DNA of 52,743 nucleotides from a virus (taxonomy: Duplodnaviria > Caudoviricetes). A program made the translations under genes and the position numbers. The stretch lies in IMG/VR virus record IMGVR_UViG_3300043773_000950, positions 1 to 52,743 of that record; one strand, given 5' to 3'. Under the pieces are notes generated by a model that was not told the DNA's origin, did not search any database, and saw only the letters and a list, made by a program, of their open reading frames with translations. Positions 13,172-46,929 of this stretch are shown piece by piece (position 1 is the stretch's first letter; each line of letters begins with the position of its first letter).

Positions 13172-16100
13172 CTATTCAAACGGAATTTCCTTGTCCATCT
13201 GAAGCTGGGATTTTACTCCCCTTCTGATCTCTCCAAGGTTGTTGGCTAAGTATTCCTGTGCCTCTTCTGTCGGGAGTTCATCGAGAGTGTCGGCATTGTC
13301 GATGACCCACTCCTTCATCAGCGGGCCAGCAATGCGGACAAACTCTCTCTGCTCTGCCAGCGTCATCCTCACACCACTGCTCCACTCAAGGCTACCCTGC
13401 CACTTGGGCGGGATGAGTCCGTTCCTGTAGAGGACGGAGAACGCTGGGTCGGGTGTCTCGCTGGATGCAATTCTTCCCACAAGTGACAATGCCCTGCGAC
13501 CCGGCCCGTTCTCTACCATGATAGAGTTGTATCTGACTGGGTCGCCAAAGTAGCCGAGTTTCTTGTCGAGGAAGAATGAGCTTCCGGGCATCTCGCGGAT
13601 TAGGTTTGATAGCCTTGTGTCCCCTTCCAGCTTCTCGTCTGTGATTGTCTTCTGGAAGTCACGCAGGATACCCGGAACAGCGAGACGGGAGATAATATTG
13701 GTCGCGATTCTTGTGGCATCCTTCGGTAAGTCTCTCGCCTCTTTGAGTTCGATGAGATCAGCCACACCAGTAAGGAATGACTGGTCGAGGGCGGCAACGA
13801 ATCCGATGGCAAATGGAGCGGCGATGACTGTTAGGGCTGCATCTGTAATCTCAATCGGCTGCTTCTCCTGCTTCTCTCTATACCTTTTTACGGCATCTGC
13901 GAACATCGATCCGGCTGCAATCGGAATAACGAGCGGCGTGTAGAGATAGGAAACATACTTGTCCCCCACCCTGATAGAGTAATTAGACCCGCCGTTCTCT
14001 CTCCAAATCTTATTCTGCTCTGGGTCTGCTGGCCCAGTAGCGTAGAACTGGACTGGCGGTCTGCTCTCTTGATCCTCGTCATCTCCACCAAGGAGTGCTG
14101 TAACTATGGCTGGTAAAGCGAAGGCTGCTGTTCCAATCATCCCCTTGATTGCGATATCTGCCGCCTTTTCTTCCCTACCAAGGATGAATGGACTCTTCTC
14201 CGCTCCGGGCTTGAGTTCGATCTTACCGCGAAGTAGCGGACTTAATTTGACATATGGCGCAAGCCTCGCCGCGCTGACATACGGGAGATAGTTGAGGTTC
14301 TCGTTAAGAACATTCGCCACGACATTGGTGAAAGGAATGAATAGCTGCGTGATCGGGCTGACCTGAAGTAGCTTATTACCAAGGCTTGCGATGAATCCTA
14401 CGACTCCAACTGGTTCCTGTGAATAAACGCTCTCCAGCGCATCTCTTTCGGCATCGATTCGCTTCTGATCTCCAAGCCTCTGCTTTGCATATATCTCATT
14501 TGCGCGGATGATGACTTCTCTTTCCTTCAGCTTGCCGCGAGATTTACTGGATGCGAGTTCAGCCTCTGCCTGCCTCTTCGCTGCCTCGTAGGCATCGACC
14601 TCAAAATCCTTCGCGCCGAATGACGCTGCCCTAACTTCATAAGCAGCCTCTCGCATGAAGGCATCTGTTGCCCGCATGATGCGCATCAGACCCCTCGGAC
14701 TGACAGTAGTGAGGACTGAGTTCAGCCACCTCGGAATCGCTTCGATCTTCCCGTCACCATAGGTTGTGAGTCCATAGACAAACTTGGGCGTGTTCTCTGG
14801 GTTTGCACCCTCAAGCACATTGAGCTTCGGATACTTCATCAACTTGTCATCTTGGATGCCTGACGGGTTTAATCCTGTCTGCATGACATAGGCGAACGAG
14901 TTCCTCGACGGGGCTTCCTTACGGATCGTTGCTGAATAAAGTGCGCGGAGCATCGGCCCGGTTGCTTTCCCCTTCGTGTAGATAGACCAGACAGCCATGT
15001 TACCAAGGAGGTTGAAGGTGCTGCCAAGGAAGTTGACTGCCTGCGTTCCGACCTGTGAGAGGAGCGCGAAATACCAGTAGCTTGAGAAGTAGTCTCTGGT
15101 TGTGAAGCCTTGCTTCTGTAGCAAGAACCTTCCCATTTTCTGCTCTTCGATGGCGCGGGTGACTCCTTCCGGCAGCGCGGATATCCTATCGCCCCATTCG
15201 CGAAGTATCTGGGCGAACTCTGGACTCCACTCAAGATATCCTTCTTGGAAGTTGTGTGTCTGGCGGAATGCTTCGTAGACTCCAAGGTCATCAAGCTGGC
15301 CCATGTTAGCCATCTCCATCAGCCTCTGGAGGAGTGTTCTCTGATTGGCCTTTGGCTTAATGTTGTTCTGTGAGAGTTTTTCCTGCGCCCGCTGGATCGC
15401 CTGTTCCAAGTTGATTGATCGCTGCGCCTGCACGGCCTTCGTCATCTCGCTCTCGATCAGTTTAGAGAGTTCGTTCGATGTCTTCTCGTCAAAGCCAAGT
15501 TCAAGGATGATGAGTTCGTTCAGCTTGTCCACGAATGCGCGGTAGTCGCTTGCCGCGAGTTTGGTGAGTCCCTTGAGCGTGGTAGCCAGCTTGAACCGCT
15601 CTTCCGCAGTAGCGACCTTCTTCATCGCCTCCTTCTCGATCTTGCCTCCGGTGATCTTTCCAGTCTCCTTGTTCACCTCGAAACCAAGACTCTTCTTCAC
15701 CCGCTTGGCAGTCTCCTCATCCAAGTAGGCTTGCGTCTCGGAGATAAACTTCTCTACTTGCTCATCCGTTGCTCCTACTCCTTTGAGTTCCGCCTTGATG
15801 TGGGCGGTCACCGCAGCCTGCGCGGCATATCTATTCTCCCCGATGTAGGTGATCAGGTCGCTAAACTTGTATTCAAGGAAATCAGCGGAATCCTTGATCG
15901 CTTGGTTCCGCATGGCATCGCTCCATTGCCTGTCCGCAAGCATCGAGAAGAGTTCCTTGTAGTCATTCTCAAACTCCCTCTTGTCGCTATACTGCTCACC
16001 GATCTTCTTCTTTAGCTCCGCGATGAATAGCTTGTAGTCATTATCGTTACCGATAACCGACTTCACTTGAGCGAGGAACTTGCCTTCCCGCTTCTTCTTC

Positions 16101-19100
16101 ACCTTCTCCTTGGCGGGTTTACCCTTCTCCTCGATCTCCCTAGCGGTCTGTTTAGCCACAGCGGAGAATGCCTGATAGACATACTTGTAGACATCGTCTG
16201 GAGAGAATCCCTTCCTTGCCGCGCCGATGGACATGATCGCCTTCGCAGTCTCATCCACCATCATGTTGGCATACTTGTCCCCGCCCAGATCGAATATTGA
16301 GGCACAGAACTCAAGGACGATCTCACGCGCCTTGCGGGTCTTCTTCTTGGCTACTGCCTTTCTGATAGCATCCGCAGCGGCCTGCGGGTTCTTCTCAGCG
16401 ATCTTCCTCAGTTCCGTAATGCGGGAGATGACTCCTTTGAGGGCGAATACATTGTCGATAGCCTGCCTCCTGTCTCCACGGACAGCTTCCGCTACCTCCG
16501 TGAAGTTTCCTTTCACGATTGTGTAGAGGTCGGCAAGTGATGCCACAACTCTCGACTTGTATGCAGCCACCGCTGTTCCTGCGGAGCCAATCTGCCTCAC
16601 GGTCTTTGCTGCGTTGAGTGTCCTCGCGCTGCCTTGCTGCTGATCGACAATCAGCTTCGCAAGATTCGCCTCCACATCCAGAGAGTTAAGTGCGATAGAC
16701 TCACGATCCTTGGCTGACGCGGAGGAATCCATGATCTGTTCCCTATAGGCTGGCATCAGCTTGTAGATCATCGGAGTGATGCTGGCGATCTCCGACTGCG
16801 AGAGGTTGAATCTGTTCAGTCCATTTCCAATATCGGAAGCCACAGAGAAGAAGTCCGCATCTGGATTGTTCTTGAATATCTTGGTCAGCGCCTTCGCTGC
16901 CTCTTCTGAGGTGTTGCTGGTATAGAGATTCACTCCCAGCGAGTATGGAGAAACAAGTGCTGCCGGATATGTCTTCCCCTTCTTGGTTGTCCGCGAGACA
17001 TATTCCTTCCCTGCACGGGAGCGGCGGGGCTTGATCTGCTCGATCATCCCCTCAATCTGGCTGACCATATCATCCGTCAGTTTTCTATGAACTGATGCGG
17101 CCCTTGGTTGTGCTGCTCTTGGGGCAGCTTCTGGTGTAGGTTCAATTCCAGACCTTGCTATGATTGTTGTTGATGGATCGAATCTCATTGAGAGCGGGAC
17201 TAATGCCCCCTCTTTGAACTGCCCAGAAGTCACCATCGGGTCTTCTTTGTCGAAGAATGTGAATGGGTCGGCGGACTTGATTTGCTCTGGCTCAAAGACA
17301 ACATAGATGTCTTCCGGCAAGAACCTTCCCTTGAGAATTGCGTCAAGTCTTCCTGTCTCTCCAGCATCGTAGGTGTTTTTGAATATCGCCCCATCTCGGC
17401 CTTCCTCTTTCGCCTTCTTCAAAAGGTTGTTGTATGACTCTTCGCGATAAACGGAACCCTTGAAGTCTTTGACGAGAGGATTGTTGAGTGAAAGGTAAAC
17501 TTCATATCTCTGAGGAAGCGGCTGCTCATCGAGTTCTTTTGACATCCTTTCGATGTCTGCCCTCATCCTTTCCGTATCTTTTAATATTCTCTCTCTGGCT
17601 TCTGGGAAGCTCTCTGCAAGTTCTTCTGTTCTCCTGAGGATGTCTTTGTATTCACTGATAATCTTTGCATTCTTTTTCCTAAGATTTTCACTTTCCTTCT
17701 TTGTATAAAGGAAGTTACCAGCATACATGTAGAACTCTGCCGTCTTCTTTCTTGTTGTGAAGAAGAAGCCCTTCTTTGCAGATGGCGCACCCGTTGCGAG
17801 TCCAAGTTTTTCCTTCAAGAAGGATGTGAATTTACTTTCAGATGTGGCGCTACCATGAAACAGTCTTGGCGAATTATACCCAGCGGCCCTTGCTGCCGCG
17901 TCTACCATTTTCTGCGCTTCTGCCTCGGCTTTCTTGTCTCCGCGAAGTGCGGCTTCGTAGAGGCCAACAAAGCGATCATTCATCTGCGGAGTCACTCCCG
18001 CCCGCGCCGTTATCGTTGACGATACTGGCTCTGCGGCGGGTTCTGTAACAGCTTCTGCCTCCGGTTCTGTCGTTACAGCGGCTTCCGGTGCCGCTGCTCT
18101 GGTTGGCTGCGCGGCACTGTAGTCCTTAAACTCATAGTTCGCCTCCCCGCCGACGATGCCATACTCGTCCAAGATTCCGTTGATGGTATCTTCCATCTTC
18201 TTGACTTCCCGCGTCGAGGTTCCTTTGCCAAGGTATCTGACAAGGGAATTGCGTAGCATCTGGAGGGCATTGAGGATGGCATTCTTGAACTGTGAGATCG
18301 CCGTCCTGCTCTTGTCTGTGAATGCTTCTCTCTCTGCTGCGCGGATTGCGTTCAAGTCTTCCGTGATCTGCCCAGTCCTCACGCGCTGGATCACCATACG
18401 CATGAATTCCATTGAGAGCGTCACATCGTCCAAGTTCTGTATCTTACCAAGATACACCTGTGAAACATTCGGGACTACATCAGGGTTCGTCCTTCTGACT
18501 TCCCTCGCGATCTGCGTGATCCGCTGAACCATGAACTCCTGCTCGGTGAGTTTGGGCTTCTTCTGCTTGGCGTATTCCTCTTGGATGGCCTTATACATCG
18601 AGAGGTGGATCATCTCCTCCTCCAGCTTCTTGGAAGCAGCCCGCGACTCTTGGTCGAGTGCGGCATCCTTGCTTGCAGCCCGCTTCTCTCCCTTGATAGC
18701 CGCATCCTTGAGTTGATTCACATCAGGAAGAACCAAGTAGAGCTTCCCTCCAGAGTAGGCTGCCATGTATGTTCCACTATCTGCGGTTACTGGCTTGCGC
18801 CCGGATATTCTGGCAAACTCTTCCGAACTGACAACATTCGCCCCTATTCCGGCGAGGAATCCAGCGTTCTTAGTGATGCCAGTTCTAATAGCATTCTTGA
18901 GCTTCTGTGCGCGTTTACCAACCGCCTTGATTCCCTTGAGTGCCTTGTCTGCTTGTTTGACGAATGCATTGAGTATCGGCCTCTCTGGATAGAATGTGCC
19001 ATAAGGATATTCCCTGCCCGATGGTGGCCTCGCAGCCGCCCGTGTCGGCGTTGTGGCTTGAGGTTCGATTCCCTGCTCAACAGCAGTAAGCGCGGCGAGT

Positions 19101-21106
19101 TTATTCTGCTCCGCGAAGAGTTCCCTGTTCACCCTGTCCTGCCCCGCTGTATCGTTCTCATCCAAGGCGTCGAACTCGTTATTGAGTTCCTCGATCCTCG
19201 CGGTCACTTGCTCCTTCGTCTGCGTCTCTTCCCTCTTCGGTGCTGCTTTTGGCGCGGCGGATAGATTGTTGAACTCCTCCTCCAGTCTGACAAGGTTCTG
19301 CTTCTTGTCATTGATCGCCATCTCTGCCTGCTGACGCTCTGGAGTGCCTTCCTCGATTGCTTGCAGGCCAAGCTCGTCATCCTCGATCTCCTTCTTGAGG
19401 GCGTCGATCTGGTTGGATCGCTCCATCATCTGGGCGGCAAGCGCGGACTCTGGGTCTGGTGCCAGATTCTCAGATTCTTGATCGGCGGATGTGTCTATCT
19501 CCTCCTGCTTGGAGCCAAGCTCGTCGCCTTGCATCGCCTTGTTCTGCGCCCTCTTCACTCCAAGCATTTGGGTGAAAATGGAAGCAAGAATGCCTGATGC
19601 TCCACCAACTCCACCAGCATACTCGACTCCCTCGAAAATGTCTTGGTTGGGATCATAGACATACTTCTTCACCAAGTTGCCAGCGACTTGCTGGGGCATC
19701 TCGTTGAATAGCGCCTCCTCTGTTCCTTCAATCACCGCTGTGGCTGCCTTGTTCAGCCCTTTGTAGATTCTGCTCTGCTGCGCGGGATCAAAGCGGCCTA
19801 TCCACTTCTGCAATGGGGAAACCAATTCAAGCGGAGCTTGTGTGAGTGCGGAGAATAGTGCAGCCTGCTTTGCCTGCTCGTCTGTAGCATCATTAGCCCG
19901 TGCTTCAGAGTATCCGGCCCATGCACTGTTGAGGCCGGAAAAGGTAAGGATGCCTCCCTTTTGGAATATATCTATAATCCTTGGTGTGTTAAATCCAAGA
20001 GAAGACCTAGCGGCGTTTACTGTTCCACCAAATACTATTGCCCCCGCTGTATATCCAAGTCCACCAGACACATCCCTGCCGAATTGGGATAGCGCCCCAA
20101 CTTTTCTTGGGTCTTGCCCACGCTCACGCATCTCATCTGCAAACTCTGCTGCATCCACAAGGGTCTGTCCTGCGTTTTCAAATCCAGTGGCTTTGAGTGC
20201 AAGCCCGACTCCTCCAACGCTTCCAGCGCCAACTGCGCCAGCATATCCGTCCCATGCGCGACCAAAGATGTCTGTGATGTTTTCAGCGAAGTCTGGCGTG
20301 GTCATTGCCCACTCTTCAGCAAGTCTGCGAACCTCTGGATTGGCCTGCATCTTTGCGATCTCATCCTCATACTCCGCAGTTCCTATTCCGATCCTGCCCA
20401 GCTTCCTTTCCAAGAATCCGGGTGTGGCATATCCCTGTTTAGCCGCATACTCAAGGAAGTTATCGTTAACGATAATGTCATCGATCTGCTGGCGGAAGTC
20501 GCCAACCGCCTTGATTGCAGCAGGCATTCTTTTTACGGTTTCTACTTTCTCTCCAGAAGGAGTAACCCCAGTCCCGCCGCCAACCATCTGTGACAGCCAT
20601 TTCTTGTAGCGGGAATCATGCTCAAGCTGATTGCGGCGAAGATCGTTGATCTCCTTCATTAAAGGAGTTTCACCGCCTTGAAGTTCCATTGTGATTCCAG
20701 AAACTTGAGTCTTACTTGATTCGTCTTGCTTCTGCTTTATCAGGTTTGCCCTAGCTTCATATGATAGCCCGTCTGGACTAATAGGTTGTGGAATCGGCTT
20801 GCCAGTAATTCCTATAGCTTCTGCCCTGCGAACCTCTACAGGCTTTCCTTCCGGCCCTTCCATGAAGGTCTTGGTCTGCCCCGGCTCCATAGCCAGAACA
20901 TCCGGCCCTCCGACCATCGGCTCTCCTCCAACAGGAAGCGGTTTGCCAAGATTTATTCTTTGGGGAACGGCGGCAAGTTCGCCAACCATCTCTTGCTCCA
21001 TCCTTGCCTGTGGAGCCATTCCTTCCATCTGGAATTCTGCAAATGCCTTCTCAAATGGGTCTTCGCCTTCCAGTTCCGTGAAGGCCGCTTCAAATTCGTC
21101 AACCAT
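13172..21106 (-). CDS. Giant internal virion / DNA-ejection protein with an ART-like domain
   Basis: 2644 aa, mostly helical, last gene of the virion block as in podovirus ejectosomes. Internal FHGS...GFFFT...VYLSLNNP...DGAIF...YVVFEPEQIKS segment. Confidence 0.75.
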   Translation of the reverse strand: MVDEFEAAFTELEGEDPFEKAFAEFQMEGMAPQARMEQEMVGELAAVPQRINLGKPLPVGGEPMVGGPDVLAMEPGQTKTFMEGPEGKPVEVRRAEAIGITGKPIPQPISPDGLSYEARANLIKQKQDESSKTQVSGITMELQGGETPLMKEINDLRRNQLEHDSRYKKWLSQMVGGGTGVTPSGEKVETVKRMPAAIKAVGDFRQQIDDIIVNDNFLEYAAKQGYATPGFLERKLGRIGIGTAEYEDEIAKMQANPEVRRLAEEWAMTTPDFAENITDIFGRAWDGYAGAVGAGSVGGVGLALKATGFENAGQTLVDAAEFADEMRERGQDPRKVGALSQFGRDVSGGLGYTAGAIVFGGTVNAARSSLGFNTPRIIDIFQKGGILTFSGLNSAWAGYSEARANDATDEQAKQAALFSALTQAPLELVSPLQKWIGRFDPAQQSRIYKGLNKAATAVIEGTEEALFNEMPQQVAGNLVKKYVYDPNQDIFEGVEYAGGVGGASGILASIFTQMLGVKRAQNKAMQGDELGSKQEEIDTSADQESENLAPDPESALAAQMMERSNQIDALKKEIEDDELGLQAIEEGTPERQQAEMAINDKKQNLVRLEEEFNNLSAAPKAAPKREETQTKEQVTARIEELNNEFDALDENDTAGQDRVNRELFAEQNKLAALTAVEQGIEPQATTPTRAAARPPSGREYPYGTFYPERPILNAFVKQADKALKGIKAVGKRAQKLKNAIRTGITKNAGFLAGIGANVVSSEEFARISGRKPVTADSGTYMAAYSGGKLYLVLPDVNQLKDAAIKGEKRAASKDAALDQESRAASKKLEEEMIHLSMYKAIQEEYAKQKKPKLTEQEFMVQRITQIAREVRRTNPDVVPNVSQVYLGKIQNLDDVTLSMEFMRMVIQRVRTGQITEDLNAIRAAEREAFTDKSRTAISQFKNAILNALQMLRNSLVRYLGKGTSTREVKKMEDTINGILDEYGIVGGEANYEFKDYSAAQPTRAAAPEAAVTTEPEAEAVTEPAAEPVSSTITARAGVTPQMNDRFVGLYEAALRGDKKAEAEAQKMVDAAARAAGYNSPRLFHGSATSESKFTSFLKEKLGLATGAPSAKKGFFFTTRKKTAEFYMYAGNFLYTKKESENLRKKNAKIISEYKDILRRTEELAESFPEARERILKDTERMRADIERMSKELDEQPLPQRYEVYLSLNNPLVKDFKGSVYREESYNNLLKKAKEEGRDGAIFKNTYDAGETGRLDAILKGRFLPEDIYVVFEPEQIKSADPFTFFDKEDPMVTSGQFKEGALVPLSMRFDPSTTIIARSGIEPTPEAAPRAAQPRAASVHRKLTDDMVSQIEGMIEQIKPRRSRAGKEYVSRTTKKGKTYPAALVSPYSLGVNLYTSNTSEEAAKALTKIFKNNPDADFFSVASDIGNGLNRFNLSQSEIASITPMIYKLMPAYREQIMDSSASAKDRESIALNSLDVEANLAKLIVDQQQGSARTLNAAKTVRQIGSAGTAVAAYKSRVVASLADLYTIVKGNFTEVAEAVRGDRRQAIDNVFALKGVISRITELRKIAEKNPQAAADAIRKAVAKKKTRKAREIVLEFCASIFDLGGDKYANMMVDETAKAIMSIGAARKGFSPDDVYKYVYQAFSAVAKQTAREIEEKGKPAKEKVKKKREGKFLAQVKSVIGNDNDYKLFIAELKKKIGEQYSDKREFENDYKELFSMLADRQWSDAMRNQAIKDSADFLEYKFSDLITYIGENRYAAQAAVTAHIKAELKGVGATDEQVEKFISETQAYLDEETAKRVKKSLGFEVNKETGKITGGKIEKEAMKKVATAEERFKLATTLKGLTKLAASDYRAFVDKLNELIILELGFDEKTSNELSKLIESEMTKAVQAQRSINLEQAIQRAQEKLSQNNIKPKANQRTLLQRLMEMANMGQLDDLGVYEAFRQTHNFQEGYLEWSPEFAQILREWGDRISALPEGVTRAIEEQKMGRFLLQKQGFTTRDYFSSYWYFALLSQVGTQAVNFLGSTFNLLGNMAVWSIYTKGKATGPMLRALYSATIRKEAPSRNSFAYVMQTGLNPSGIQDDKLMKYPKLNVLEGANPENTPKFVYGLTTYGDGKIEAIPRWLNSVLTTVSPRGLMRIMRATDAFMREAAYEVRAASFGAKDFEVDAYEAAKRQAEAELASSKSRGKLKEREVIIRANEIYAKQRLGDQKRIDAERDALESVYSQEPVGVVGFIASLGNKLLQVSPITQLFIPFTNVVANVLNENLNYLPYVSAARLAPYVKLSPLLRGKIELKPGAEKSPFILGREEKAADIAIKGMIGTAAFALPAIVTALLGGDDEDQESRPPVQFYATGPADPEQNKIWRENGGSNYSIRVGDKYVSYLYTPLVIPIAAGSMFADAVKRYREKQEKQPIEITDAALTVIAAPFAIGFVAALDQSFLTGVADLIELKEARDLPKDATRIATNIISRLAVPGILRDFQKTITDEKLEGDTRLSNLIREMPGSSFFLDKKLGYFGDPVRYNSIMVENGPGRRALSLVGRIASSETPDPAFSVLYRNGLIPPKWQGSLEWSSGVRMTLAEQREFVRIAGPLMKEWVIDNADTLDELPTEEAQEYLANNLGEIRRGVKSQLQMDKEIPFE

Positions 21107-43250: not shown

Positions 43251-45098
43251 GTGTCAAGAGATTTTGTTGGTCAAAATGGTATCAGGCAATACGGGATGCT
43301 TTTTCCCGAAAACATGAATCAGCTTGAAATAGAGCTATATTGCTATGCGATTACTCGCGGGCAGTATGGCAAAACCTATTGTGTGAAAAAGGGATTGGAC
43401 TTATCGGAGTTCAAGCTACTCAGTCCATTTGAACACTTCATCAAGGCCGTTCAGTATATGTGGCCCACTGATGTGGTCATTAAAAATAGGGGCTATACGA
43501 ATACCCAACTTTTGAGGACATTGGAAGAACTCTGCAACAATGACGATGTAGTTCTCGCGGGCGCGGCATCGATGGGAAAGAGCTTCCCTGTTGCATTGTG
43601 GGTTTACTTGGATTGGTGTGCCGCACCGCACTGCACATCTGCTTGGGTGGCTACGACTACTCTTGGTGCTTCGGAAGACCGTATTTGGGGTATCATCTCA
43701 AAGCTGTGGAAGTGTGCTTCAAACCAGATCGGAAACCTTGTAGATTACAGGCACATGATTGTGTGGGGCGGGGCTACGGGCGATGATGATAAGGACTACC
43801 GCAATGCGATTAAGGCTCTGGCATTCCCACAAGGTAACGAGGGCAAGAAAGCAGTCGACACTACCCGTGGTAGGAAAAATGACAGAGTGCGCCTAGCCCT
43901 TGATGAGTTGCCTGAAATGGAAATGGGTGCGCTGACTGCGAAAGTGAACCTGACCTCCAACGATGACAAGGTGTTTATCGGTATCGGCAACCCTTCTGTA
44001 GGTGACAATCCTCACACTCGGTGGTGTATGCCAAAAGGCGCTACGAATTTTGATGGTGTGGATATGGGGATGGATAAGTGGGAGACGGAGACTGGCATCT
44101 GTTTGTTCTACAACGGCATGAAGTCCCCGAACTTCCAAGCCCCGGCTGGAGAGCCGTCTCCTTTCCCATTCCTCATGGACAGGACGAAGCAGGCGCAGAT
44201 GCTTAAGCAGTGCTATGGGGACGAGAATGCTGTGGACTATGTTCGCAATGCCATCGGATGGTGGCCCAAGTCCGGCTTTGCCCAGACGATCCTGACCGCA
44301 GATGTGATCCGTAATGCCAATACCAATGAAGAGCCACTATGGGACTCTGAAGGGTTGGTCAAGGTCGCGGGATTCGATACCGCCTTCACCGCTGGTGGGG
44401 ACAGGTGTGTGCTGACTATCGGGAAACTTGGCTATGTGCGCGGAACTAGGAATCGTGTCCTCTATCTGGAAAAGCAGCATGTCATTCAAATATCTGCTAC
44501 TGCCAGCGCCGAGTTTGAAGTCCAGCTTGCCATAGAGACAATTCGCCTGTGCCGCGAGGCGGGAGTAGAACCAAAACGATTCGGTATGGATGTCTCTGGA
44601 GATGGCGGGCGGGTGGCTCAAGCTATCATCCGCGAGTGGCTCAAGTATGAATCCAGCGGGCATAGCATCGTGCTGATTAGCTCAATGGGTAAACCAACCG
44701 ACCGAATCGCCGCCGATGTCGATAAGCGTCCATGTAATGAAGTCTATGACAGACTGGTATCTGAATACCATTATAGCATATTTCACGGGTTCAAAAGTCG
44801 TGTGCTATTTGGAGTGGATTACGCTACAGAACTAGGTCGGGAACTCTGCCTGCGGAGATACTTCATAAAGAATAAGAAGATCAGTATCGAAACTAAGAAT
44901 GATTACAAAGCGCGGATTGGTTCATCGCCTGACCTTGCGGATAGTTTCAGCTATGCCGTAGAGATGGCCCGCCGATACGGACTCGTTTTTATCGGTAACG
45001 ATAAACCTGTTCCGACTAATCGATTCTGGGCGCGGGACGAGAAGAAGGTCGATATGCCCGACGAAGAGTATGCCTCGCAAGATTGGGGCGAGGATTAA
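43251..45098 (+). CDS. terL: Terminase large subunit
   Basis: Walker A GAASMGKS, Walker B LALDE, coupling motif GIGNP, nuclease GFDTA...GGD and SPDLADS. Confidence 0.88.
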   Translation: MSRDFVGQNGIRQYGMLFPENMNQLEIELYCYAITRGQYGKTYCVKKGLDLSEFKLLSPFEHFIKAVQYMWPTDVVIKNRGYTNTQLLRTLEELCNNDDVVLAGAASMGKSFPVALWVYLDWCAAPHCTSAWVATTTLGASEDRIWGIISKLWKCASNQIGNLVDYRHMIVWGGATGDDDKDYRNAIKALAFPQGNEGKKAVDTTRGRKNDRVRLALDELPEMEMGALTAKVNLTSNDDKVFIGIGNPSVGDNPHTRWCMPKGATNFDGVDMGMDKWETETGICLFYNGMKSPNFQAPAGEPSPFPFLMDRTKQAQMLKQCYGDENAVDYVRNAIGWWPKSGFAQTILTADVIRNANTNEEPLWDSEGLVKVAGFDTAFTAGGDRCVLTIGKLGYVRGTRNRVLYLEKQHVIQISATASAEFEVQLAIETIRLCREAGVEPKRFGMDVSGDGGRVAQAIIREWLKYESSGHSIVLISSMGKPTDRIAADVDKRPCNEVYDRLVSEYHYSIFHGFKSRVLFGVDYATELGRELCLRRYFIKNKKISIETKNDYKARIGSSPDLADSFSYAVEMARRYGLVFIGNDKPVPTNRFWARDEKKVDMPDEEYASQDWGED

Positions 45099-45142
45099 AA
45101 AAGACCCGCCCAATTGCGCATTGTTAAGAGGCGGGGCGGGGC
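45098..45142 (-). terminator. Intrinsic terminator closing the minus-strand ncRNA region
   Basis: Minus strand GCCCCGCCC...GGGCGGGTC followed by TTTTT. Confidence 0.55.
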
Positions 45143-45146
45143 AAAA

Positions 45147-45307
45147 TGGTTTGCGATGGAGTTCAGGTCGCTCGGCTGCTTGATGCGCTTCCTTGAAAAG
45201 GCACGGTTTCCCGCGTCAAGTAAGGGGAATGGTCGCCATTACTGGTCCTGTTCGCCCGCCCCAAGCTACGACTTAGTGGCGTGCCGCCCTCAATGCTCCA
45301 CCGCAAA
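45147..45307 (-). ncRNA. Candidate structured RNA (~160 nt) ending in CCA
   Basis: 12-bp terminal stem TTTGCGGTGGAG/CTCCATCGCAAA, then CCA; several internal hairpins. Confidence 0.5.
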
Positions 45308-45310
45308 TTG

Positions 45311-45409
45311 TTTCCCCCGCCGCGATGCTCCTCCAGACAACCAGAAGCCTTGCCACATCGCGCTTTTCAGTTCCGAGAACCTACTTCGTCTGACATAGGA
45401 ACGGGGAAA
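45311..45409 (-). ncRNA. Candidate structured RNA (~100 nt)
   Basis: Terminal stem TTTCCCCG/CGGGGGAAA and internal GCGCGATG...CATCGCG pairing. Confidence 0.4.
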
Positions 45410-45413
45410 TTAA

Positions 45414-45562
45414 TTGATCGGACTGGGCGCTACTCCAGTTAATTCGATAGCCGTTTTTATTGAGGTGTTCGTCATCCTCTATTTGCGTGTCTCACCTGCA
45501 AGACTTTCGTCAACCAGATGCGGGTGAGCAGAGCTTCACCCGGCTTCCACGCCGCCGATCAA
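45414..45562 (-). ncRNA. tRNA-like structured RNA (~150 nt)
   Basis: Acceptor-like TTGATCGG/CCGATCAA, D-like stem GCGTG/CACGC with inserted hairpins, T-like arm ACTGG-8 nt-CCAGT next to the 3' acceptor strand. Confidence 0.5.
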
Positions 45563-45568
45563 AATACA

Positions 45569-45648
45569 AGCCGGACTAGGGTAAGCCTTTGTCGTTTCCA
45601 TGGAACTTACAGGACGAGGCATGGAGCCTCTTTTCCCCTAGTCTAGCT
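45569..45648 (-). ncRNA. Candidate structured RNA (~80 nt)
   Basis: Terminal stem AGCTAGACTAGGG/CCCTAGTCCGGCT. Confidence 0.4.
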
Positions 45649-45689
45649 AAATTTGTTTCAAAGATCAAGTCTGGCTTTATATGCCAAGG

Positions 45690-45914
45690 CTATTCTAGGA
45701 CACCTTCTAGTTCAAGCGCATTCGCTAGTTCCTCTTGCACCGTGATGAGTGCGTAGGTGTAGCCCTCGCTCGTCTTCTCGATAGGCTCGATTTTGCGAAT
45801 GTTCTCTTTCTGTATCCAGCAGTCGTTGTAGTCCTGCATGAAGCGCAGTTTGTTTGGTTTATCGTCAACGATAAATCCTCTGCATGTGACTAAGCTCTCA
45901 AACTTTGTATTCAT
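45690..45914 (-). CDS. Hypothetical protein
   Basis: 74-aa ORF overlapping the HNH gene. Confidence 0.65.
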   Translation of the reverse strand: MNTKFESLVTCRGFIVDDKPNKLRFMQDYNDCWIQKENIRKIEPIEKTSEGYTYALITVQEELANALELEGVLE

Positions 45915-46218
45915 AAATTAGGTATCCTTTTTCCCTCGCCCACGCGGGATTTGCGTGGATTCTGTCGTGACAGGATCGGCAGCAAGCCATGAAAGTATGC
46001 TTCGCGAGGAGGTTCTTTCCTCTCCCGCTTTTGTGGTGGATGTCTGTTGCTTGCCCGCCGCAGGCTTCACATGTGAAGTTTTTGTCCCAGAGGAATTGCT
46101 TTCTGATTTCAGAATACGCTTTACTTTTTTCTCTGCCTTTTTTCGATACTGCATTCAGCCTACCTCCGCGCTTTTTGAATCCTGTTTTTGCCCGCAACGG
46201 GGTTTTTCTTCGTAGCAT
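45898..46218 (-). CDS. HNH endonuclease
   Basis: CEACG..ATDIHH...CCRSCHDRIH. Confidence 0.85.
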   Translation of the reverse strand: MLRRKTPLRAKTGFKKRGGRLNAVSKKGREKSKAYSEIRKQFLWDKNFTCEACGGQATDIHHKSGRGKNLLAKHTFMACCRSCHDRIHANPAWAREKGYLIYEYKV

Positions 46219-46466
46219 AGTGATACAATCTTGTCTATGTGTTCCGGCTTCAAGATGCTTTTGCAGACTGTTTCCACTTGGTTGATCAGGCTCCCCGTCA
46301 CTCCGATCCGCGCGCCAAGTTCGCGAACTGTCATGCCAAGATGCTTTCTTGTCTGCTTTAGTGATGTGCCAAACAACATTCTCGCAGAATGCCTGATCTC
46401 CTTGCTCTTCTCGATAGAGGCAAGGTAGTTCTCGTAGGCTACTTTGAGATCGTGGCTTTGATTCAT
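46155..46466 (-). CDS. XRE-family HTH regulator
   Basis: LKQTRKHLGMTVRELGARIGVTGSLINQVE. Confidence 0.8.
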   Translation of the reverse strand: MNQSHDLKVAYENYLASIEKSKEIRHSARMLFGTSLKQTRKHLGMTVRELGARIGVTGSLINQVETVCKSILKPEHIDKIVSLCYEEKPRCGQKQDSKSAEVG

Positions 46467-46476
46467 TCAGAGTGAC

Positions 46477-46521
46477 AGATTAAATTCCATTATTGACAAG
46501 TCAAGTATTTTATGATTAAAT
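46477..46521. promoter_or_regulatory. Overlapping divergent promoters
   Basis: Inverted repeat TTGACAAGTCAA (46493-46504) gives TTGACA on + and TTGACT on -. Candidate -10 boxes: TTAAAT (+) and TAATCT (-). Confidence 0.55.
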
Positions 46522-46527
46522 GGAGTA

Positions 46528-46929
46528 ATGGACATCACAAACATAACAGACGAAAACGCTTACAAGCTAATTGAGGCAGCCAGACGCAGCCTCGTTGCCA
46601 CAAACATGGCATTTTGTGAGATAATGAACCAAGGCATCATCTCAACATACGAATCCGTTGAAGATGGCGGAGGATACATGGTCATGGGCATCCGGCCCAA
46701 CTGCACACTGGTCGCAGCCGCGAAATCCAAGGGCAGGATCATCTGGAGCGAGATGCACTTGAAAAAGCCAGAGGTCGAAATCCATCAAAAGATGAGTGTC
46801 CTCAACTTGCCAAACGAAGAACAGCTTGACCAATGGTGGGACATCTTCATGGACAACATCGAGACATGGACTCGCGGGGATGTGGACACATTCGGAATGA
46901 ACGATGGAATCGCTGAAGCTCCATTTTGA
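46528..46929 (+). CDS. Hypothetical protein
   Basis: 133-aa ORF with GGAG upstream. Confidence 0.7.
   Translation: MDITNITDENAYKLIEAARRSLVATNMAFCEIMNQGIISTYESVEDGGGYMVMGIRPNCTLVAAAKSKGRIIWSEMHLKKPEVEIHQKMSVLNLPNEEQLDQWWDIFMDNIETWTRGDVDTFGMNDGIAEAPF

Follow-up and report, generated by a model that had tools for sequence, protein, structure and literature searches.

A tRNA-operon-like array of structured RNA modules with an orphan abiF-type hairpin in a hypervariable gap of a freshwater phage

The IMG/VR virus record IMGVR_UViG_3300043773_000950 is a phage genome of 52,743 bp, rated 100% complete by CheckV, and the whole record was analysed here as one stretch of DNA (the window). Between the large terminase gene TerL and a small operon on the opposite strand lies a gap of 591 nt (45099-45689), in which a boxA-like leader, four end-paired units (E1-E4) and a hairpin of the abiF RNA family follow one another on the minus strand. 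TerL (43251-45098, plus strand; a weak match to PHROG 2) is convergent with the array and closes the locus on one side. On the other side stands the upstream operon (45690-46466, minus strand), annotated with Pfam and PHROGs, which comprises a helix-turn-helix (HTH) protein (46155-46466), an HNH endonuclease (45898-46218) and orf74 (45690-45914, 74 aa). A sequence-only reading of this DNA had described the four units as organised like a tRNA operon and had suggested decoys, antitoxin mimics or anti-CRISPR RNAs as their possible functions. Here we describe the units as exchangeable modules of conserved structure, and the hairpin beside them as a member of the RNA antitoxin family of the abortive-infection toxin AbiF.

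The array and its place in a hypervariable gap

Followed along the minus strand, the array starts right after the orf74 stop with a small hairpin (45671-45687; 5-bp stem, 7-nt loop), which stands right before the boxA-like leader UGAUCUUUGAAACAA (45653-45667). E1 (45570-45647, 78 nt) is predicted to fold as a three-way junction, with a closing stem of 12 positions including one A.C mismatch. E2 (45414-45562, 149 nt) is closed by 8 bp and has conserved ends around a swapped centre, E3 (45311-45409, 99 nt) is closed by 7-9 bp, and E4 (45150-45307, 158 nt) has a long bulged closing helix of 12 bp including one G.U. The E4 closing stem is followed by CCA (45147-45149), by the abiF-type hairpin (45104-45140), and by a U-run (45097-45102) located 1 nt before the convergent TerL stop (45098), the probable intrinsic terminator of the array. 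A terminator scan missed this hairpin and U-run because the hairpin has a large inner loop. Every feature listed in the sequence-only reading is present on the minus strand, and its estimates of about 80, 150, 100 and 160 nt for the units agree with the lengths found. The linkers between units are 3-7 nt long and A/U-rich.

The units share no sequence with one another, as had been noted earlier, and the sole direct repeats are two-copy families of 10-15 nt. An array of the type III ToxI kind was rejected for want of tandem direct repeats of one short unit, and a MITE- or REP-type repeat was also rejected: outside its own position, the array finds at best a 14-nt match in the window (E 0.095). 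No open reading frame (ORF) of the gap is longer than 94 aa, and none is conserved; that of 94 aa has a broken frame in the related locus L003, and lake variants carry 1-nt insertions in E4, in line with the earlier judgement that no credible protein is encoded. None of the units is a canonical tRNA: ARAGORN found 0 tRNAs in the window, and Rfam family RF00005 gave no match even at E<=10 in 44900-45950. Rfam 15 was applied at the gathering score to the window and 45 of the other loci and at E<=10 to the gap and the gap of locus L061, and no tRNA/tmRNA, manA, wcaG or other family was found for E1-E4, either by gathering score in the window or at E<=10 in the gap. Among CRISPR repeat families, only CRISPR-DR10 appeared, with 15.2 bits against a threshold of 39, on the plus strand over the abiF hairpin. 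Within the phage genome, no antisense target and no further copy of the array stood out above chance. A sigma-70 promoter was not found in 44900-46700, a result of low weight because the consensus may not be that of the host.

TerL has 271 relatives in viral contigs, and gene order and loci were compared in the best 80 of these 271. The order p123(-), TerL(+), gap, orf74(-), HNH(-), HTH(-), p133(+) is conserved among them. The length of the gap is not constant: of the 63 relatives with both TerL and orf74, 28 have a gap of 0 nt or less, 27 one of 18-387 nt and 8 one of 1.6-2.6 kb. The gap is a hypervariable hotspot carrying accessory cargo. The long gaps (L002-L005, L015, L019, L032 and L066; 8 of 63 relatives) contain tail-fibre-like or tail-spike-like genes of 318-785 aa in the direction of the operon, and the 381-aa form of this gene has no PHROG family.

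The leader of the array, UUGAUCUUUGAAA, agrees at 12 of 13 positions with the Bacillus subtilis rrn boxA consensus AUGAUCUUUGAAA. The boxA-like site named by the sequence-only reading is thus borne out by the match. The B. subtilis consensus is described as binding NusB, and the rrn leader has the same order of hairpin then boxA (PMC13753749). The 10-mer TGATCTTT[AG]A occurs a single time in the 52.7-kb window, at the array start, and is found in 16 of 20 module-bearing loci, at the array start in those loci whose sequences were displayed. It is absent from 1.0 Mb of control sequence (0/113 loci; the control set consists of the chance matches of an E2 pattern scan) and occurs 5 times in 1.0 Mb of abiF loci. 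By analogy with rrn operons and CRISPR arrays, where a hairpin and boxA recruiting Nus antitermination head a long, untranslated, structured and processed transcript that can hold tRNAs, the leader fits a transcript that would need Nus-type protection. The array differs from these systems in its cargo of shuffled small accessory RNAs carried by a phage, and its binding of NusB is a prediction.

Conserved structures and exchange of the modules

E4 is the best sampled of the four families and, as judged from its alignment, has clear covariation support. Its 14 copies in 13 viral contigs share 33 consensus pairs, with 97.6% of 460 cells paired, and show 7 compensatory pairs, compared with a shuffle mean of 3.5 (0/500 shuffles reach 7) and with 0-2 in slid controls. 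One position of the closing stem is G.U in eight copies and G-C in six. For E1, four copies (window, L090, L091 and L343) give 27 pairs with 2 compensatory, and two copies restore pairing at the A.C mismatch. The four copies of E2 (window, L189, L193 and L343) give 21 consensus pairs with 5 compensatory. Twelve aligned copies of E3 give 24 pairs with 2 compensatory; one column pair is C-G in six copies and U-A in the other six, and several positions alternate between G.U and G-C. Such alternation of G.U with G-C fits an RNA read from the minus strand, not from the plus strand, and each of E1-E4 also folds better on the minus strand. The sequence-only reading had looked to covariation in viral homologues for confirmation; compensatory changes are seen in all four families, with fewer in E1-E3 than in E4. 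That reading had also placed a CCA and a terminator after the last unit; the CCA (45149-45147) and the hairpin with its U-run are indeed present, but the position of the CCA is not fixed among the 14 aligned E4 copies, 10 of which have it within 6 nt of the stem.

The conservation is concentrated at the ends of the units. In E2, E3 and E4 the ends are kept and the inner hairpins are exchanged for other hairpins; for example, L003, L005 and the L209 type have other structured inserts in place of the inner hairpin of E3. E1-E4 constitute new RNA families, set apart by comparison with Rfam 15, with the 10,006 candidate viral RNAs of PMC10690425 standing outside that comparison. They add four structured RNA families absent from Rfam 15, in addition to at least five in relatives.

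Whole units are present or missing in related phages. Locus L004 has E3 alone and L011 has E4 alone (79% identity), and L003 and L010 have a variant of E3 followed by E4 and the abiF hairpin; the edges of the subsets in relatives coincide with the closing stems. Contigs from other lakes have an E1-E2 region identical to that of the window, and one lake contig joins 45409 to 45653 (side 102), so that E1 and E2 are missing exactly. A second joint, 45309 to 45658 (side 37), lies like the first within 3 nt of module edges, and two further lake joints with sides below 30 carry less weight. Pattern scans recovered other arrangements: E1-E4-C in L090, E2-E4-C in L193, E2-C in L189, E1-E2-E4-C in L343, E3-E4 ahead of a tail-fibre-like gene in L209, L210a, L212 and L342, E3-E4-abiF in L210b and L341, and also tRNA-Met-E4-C. 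The module families recur in unrelated genomic contexts at 75-90% identity, and further end-paired modules of other kinds (A, B, C, D and F) are combined in various ways in the short gaps of other relatives. Each unit is a discrete module of evolution, gained, lost and swapped whole at the boundaries of its stem.

Some of these loci deserve a separate description. L210, a viral contig of 34.9 kb (95% complete), has two E3-E4 arrays about 3 kb apart, one followed by a tail-fibre-like gene and the other by the abiF hairpin. Module B (about 75 nt; L023, L031, L047, L051, L054, L061, L062, L064 and L080) has a constant scaffold with an inner hairpin that is wholly different between copies, and several copies end in NCCA then UUUU; it has no Rfam family. 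Module C (100-150 nt) is the most widespread (L008, L022, L040, L046, L056, L060, L068, L082, L086, L090, L189, L193 and others). It has a conserved GCAGGCAGGUG start and an end with GAUGCAUAC before CCUGC, shows compensatory changes from GGG/CCC to GCG/CGC, and often stands last, ahead of the tail-fibre-like gene. No Rfam 15 family was found for modules A, B and C of relatives.

The scans behind these counts differ in specificity. The E2 pattern gave at least 115 matches in viral contigs, nearly all by chance, and the real ones among the matches listed are L189 and L193; the chance matches, 113 loci with 1.0 Mb of sequence, form the control set used throughout. L089, a candidate copy of E1, was rejected as a chance match of the E1 pattern. 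A 19-mer of E4 had 11 matches in metagenome contigs, four of them by chance in unrelated coding DNA and seven in phage arrays.

The abiF hairpin and the link to phage tRNA operons

The hairpin at the end of the array (45140-45104) matches Rfam RF03085 (abiF) over model positions 1-37 of 37; it scores 44.4 bits (E 5.8e-5), where the gathering score is 37. It contains the conserved inner-loop letters of the family and is the sole Rfam match above threshold in the window. AbiF, a HEPN RNase, is an abortive-infection toxin from which Cas13 is described as having descended (10.1101/2025.04.15.648962 and reviews), and the abiF motif is the antitoxin part of RCd22 in C. difficile, reported to neutralise AbiF in cis and in trans (10.1101/2025.04.15.648962). 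In the window the hairpin is an orphan: Abi_2 (PF07751) has no match at E<=1 in the complete 52.7-kb record, and downstream of the hairpin on the minus strand there is only TerL antisense. It resembles the non-coding RNA (ncRNA) antitoxins of AbiF (RCd22 in C. difficile; AbiFr of PbAbiF) in matching the whole model, and differs from them in standing without an abiF gene, in a single copy, at the end of a non-coding array where it doubles as the probable terminator.

How common are such orphans? A scan of viral contigs for the motif core found at least 118 contigs (L214-L331) besides the window, and the following counts refer to the 118 matches listed. The outer stem keeps at least 6 of its 7 pairs in 93 of them, with many different stem sequences. 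Abi_2 was found in two of the records, which leaves 116 without the toxin, and in 0/13 of those that are at least 90% complete. The ORFs downstream form 36 clusters unrelated to one another, and in 64 loci the first 350 nt contain no ORF. In addition, tRNAs are present in 70 of the 118 abiF loci (395 per 1.0 Mb), compared with 8 of 113 control loci (15 per 1.0 Mb). A tRNA on the same strand starts no more than 25 nt after the core in 38 loci, and in 29 of these 38 it is tRNA-Arg(UCU). Phage tRNA operons thus regularly include the abiF hairpin (L304, L305, L329 and L280 are examples), and the motif is often (38 of 118) their promoter-proximal leader. In six displayed loci with an adjacent tRNA, the abiF motif stands behind a TTGACA-17-TATAAT-like promoter and a second hairpin, which covaries and has a GGUCCAAAC loop.

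Synechococcus phage S-CREM1 provides the one annotated case among cultured phages: its tRNA array contains the motif beside manA and wcaG RNAs. There the abiF small RNA (sRNA) lies between tRNA-Asn and tRNA-Gly (PMC9964418), and its role is left open in that paper and in a 2025 review. In the literature searched, from which the original AbiF/Cas13 paper and all supplements were absent, no paper was found to describe orphan abiF RNAs as decoys or as generally present in phage tRNA arrays. Within this literature, the orphan pattern appears in print only as this one annotated sRNA of one cyanophage, with its role called unconfirmed. Like the window array, that of S-CREM1 carries structured non-tRNA RNAs in head-to-tail order, there among tRNAs. 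The window array differs in lacking tRNAs, in having units that are matched by neither manA nor wcaG, in its boxA leader, and in belonging to a phage of 53 kb without a cultured relative.

The window array and its relatives are tied to tRNA arrays more directly by loci in which true tRNAs occupy the slots of units. L003 has tRNA-Cys 7 nt after its abiF hairpin, L346 has tRNA-Met between the leader and E4, directly before E4, and L091, a viral contig of 165 kb, has a copy of E1 (about 90% identical) directly after tRNA-Val, tRNA-Ala and tRNA-Tyr. The resemblance to a tRNA operon put forward by the sequence-only reading thus extends to actual tRNAs in three other arrays. Any tRNA at all occurs in 1 of the 80 TerL-relative loci, so the arrays of this group are mostly tRNA-less, though built like tRNA arrays. 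E1-E4 belong to a known kind of system, that of phage stable-RNA and tRNA arrays. The tRNA cluster of phage T4 likewise includes two stable non-tRNA RNAs, species 1 and 2, which are co-transcribed and processed with the tRNAs.

Proposed function and alternative explanations

We lean, with modest confidence, towards reading the array as a boxA-led stable-RNA operon of accessory small RNAs, in which the abiF hairpin acts as terminator and as mimic of the AbiF antitoxin, and E1-E4 act in trans. Transcription would enter from the HTH-HNH-orf74 operon on the minus strand and pass through the small hairpin and the rrn-type boxA, where the loading of NusB/S10 would shield the untranslated, highly structured transcript from premature termination. 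E1-E4 would then be unrelated modules whose own ends pair to close them, spaced by A/U linkers; host RNases could cut at these linkers, and the closing stems would protect the released RNAs. The abiF hairpin with its U-run would end the transcript. As an RNA, the same hairpin would mimic the antitoxin of a host AbiF and silence the toxin during infection, and the last unit is, to judge from its family match, probably such an antidote mimic. For E1-E4, a role in trans is most likely by analogy, as protein-binding or decoy RNAs in the manner of phage tRNAs and the abiF hairpin. The whole array may be an RNA toolkit against host defences. The sequence-only reading had raised antitoxin mimicry for the four units; direct support was found for the piece that it had called a terminator and not for E1-E4, and its interpretation is partly supported, release of the units by RNase P/Z-type processing being still a proposal, with the strongest lead located just outside the span of 45147-45666 that it gave.

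Phage-borne RNAs or hairpins that act against abortive-infection toxins have precedents. Pseudo-ToxI of phage PhiTE is a phage RNA that neutralises the toxin of an RNA-antitoxin (type III) abortive-infection system (PMC3475682), and a hairpin at phage sk1's cos site inhibits AbiF and is reported to be unlike the AbiF ncRNA (PMC13064643). Both serve as precedents against toxins of type III, and a comparable role is predicted for the hairpin of the window. Pseudo-ToxI is a tandem repeat, whereas the units of the window are unrelated to each other; unlike the sk1 hairpin, that of the window does resemble the AbiF ncRNA.

Several observations weigh against a stable-RNA operon with an AbiF-directed hairpin. 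The array has a single abiF motif, compared with two in the working antitoxin of C. difficile (10.1101/2025.04.15.648962), and the host may lack AbiF. The hairpin and U-run could be a terminator that merely resembles the family, and the abiF copy of L091 is marginal (37.3 bits against 37) and is placed as a terminator after a gene. No E-module was found beside a bacterial toxin gene in the one scan made, that of metagenome contigs with the E4 19-mer. None of the 22 sequencing runs listed for the window is on record as RNA, and the array is known from DNA only. Arrays with module C in first place lack the boxA-like leader. If stems need 7 or more pairs (G.U allowed) and linkers may have up to 10 nt, 397 of 500 dinucleotide shuffles reach a chain of at least four end-paired domains, so that the tiling is within chance; if 8 or more pairs are required, the real chain is 3, which 214 of 500 shuffles reach. 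Folding z-scores are modest, being weak for E2 (-1.79) and E3 (-1.38) and stronger for E1 (-3.21; 0/200 shuffles equally stable) and E4 (-2.48). In the full-length minimum-energy fold, the 3' end of E3 pairs with the 5' arm of abiF instead of both structures forming. The pairing used in that fold, of 45132-45145 with 45311-45324 (14 nt, 86% complementary), encloses E4.

The main rival explanation is that the modules are a cis leader, for antitermination, stability or translation control, of the accessory tail-fibre-like gene, which would have been lost here and left the leader as a relic. E3-E4 or C stands directly upstream of the gene beginning MPSPDRHF in at least 10 loci (L002-L005, L082, L086, L090, L209, L210a, L212 and L342), which agrees with a role in cis. 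A boxA leader would suit read-through into a distal gene, and in L003 (TerL 98% identical) abiF is followed by tRNA-Cys and the MPSPDRHF gene, where the window has nothing. However, among the 35 relatives whose gap is at least 18 nt long, 27 carry RNA modules that no gene follows, since the convergent TerL comes immediately after them. In addition, E1 lies within the tRNA array of an unrelated 165-kb phage, arrays close with a hairpin and U-run in the window, L210b and L341, and an identical gene-less array is maintained in several lake populations. The 27 gene-less arrays and the E1 copy in a tRNA array weaken the cis-leader explanation, which we consider distinctly unlikely.

Could the gap be a non-functional spacer, made of leftovers of repeated illegitimate recombination, in which ends pair by chance in GC-rich sequence? 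The chance-level tiling given above, the whole-gap z-scores of -1.66 and -2.73, and the 28 of 63 relatives without any spacer would agree with this. Against it stand the recurrence of module families in unrelated contexts at 75-90% identity with conserved ends and compensatory changes, the breakpoints at stems, the conserved boxA leader and the abiF match above threshold, and the spacer explanation has little probability left. On this comparative evidence, and despite chance-level tiling, the units are judged to be real.

The elements might instead act as DNA, as cos-related packaging signals, replication signals or sites of site-specific recombination, with the inverted repeats serving as protein sites or single-strand hairpins. 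HNH endonuclease and TerL cooperate at cos sites in some phages, and the array lies between these two genes and has terminal inverted repeats. The sk1 element that protects against AbiF also maps to a cos site (PMC13064643). A DNA signal is nevertheless very improbable: the region is dispensable in 28 of 63 relatives, its module content differs between phages with nearly identical TerL, the alternation of G.U with G-C appears on one strand only, and the same modules are found far from any terminase, inside tRNA arrays. It is equally improbable that the abiF hairpin is the antitoxin half of a complete phage toxin-antitoxin system, with a toxin too divergent for Pfam Abi_2 or another phage protein in that part, since, although AbiF systems occur in prophages (10.1101/2025.04.15.648962) and Abi_2 in two of the 118 listed records, the minus strand past the hairpin holds only TerL antisense and the listed loci continue into unrelated ORF clusters, no near ORF or, in 38 cases, a tRNA.

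The stable-RNA operon with its AbiF-antitoxin mimic can be extended to a more speculative proposal, which we put forward as a doubtful possibility: the modules (E1-E4; A, B, C, D, F and others) would form a plug-and-play library of decoys, each mimicking the RNA partner or substrate of a different host defence protein, and phages would shuffle them, tRNAs included, behind a shared boxA leader. If the decoy library were true, E1-E4 would point to undescribed RNA-antitoxin defence systems in freshwater bacteria. Short of that, the findings indicate that stable-RNA operons with an rrn-type boxA and no tRNAs can be part of phage genomes, where they evolve like tRNA arrays. Many phage genomes that lack the toxin carry the RNA antitoxin motif of AbiF, which suggests a counter-defence hypothesis; should the hairpin neutralise AbiF in trans, the tRNA arrays of phages would be mixed islands of anti-defence RNAs.

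The source of the phage is freshwater: part of the window is present in 20 of the 22 sequencing runs listed, which are labelled lake, freshwater, aquatic or plain metagenome. TerL and the gap have no match among 50,697 cultured phage records, and a protein of L091 likewise has no match in cultured phages. PHROGs has no family for 8 of the 9 proteins searched, which were large ORFs of the window and the tail-fibre-like gene of the hotspot; a 2,644-aa ORF (13172-21106, minus strand), like most large ORFs of the phage, has no PHROG match. A search for the host with TerL found a single contig among genome contigs, and a protein atlas search returned viral DnaB clusters only. This contig, L088 (51,842 bp), lies in a metagenome-assembled genome labelled Candidatus Woesearchaeota, has a TerL 76% identical to that of the window, and contains modules A, B and C; probably it belongs to a phage and was mis-binned into an archaeal genome. 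Finally, a palindrome, TTATCG(N4)CGATAA, recurs in the window at 44985-45004, within the 3' end of TerL, and also in L336 and L340. In relatives it is found just before the tail-fibre-like gene (L082 and L086) or at the start of the gap (L019, L066 and L075), and it may be an operator or a recombination site.

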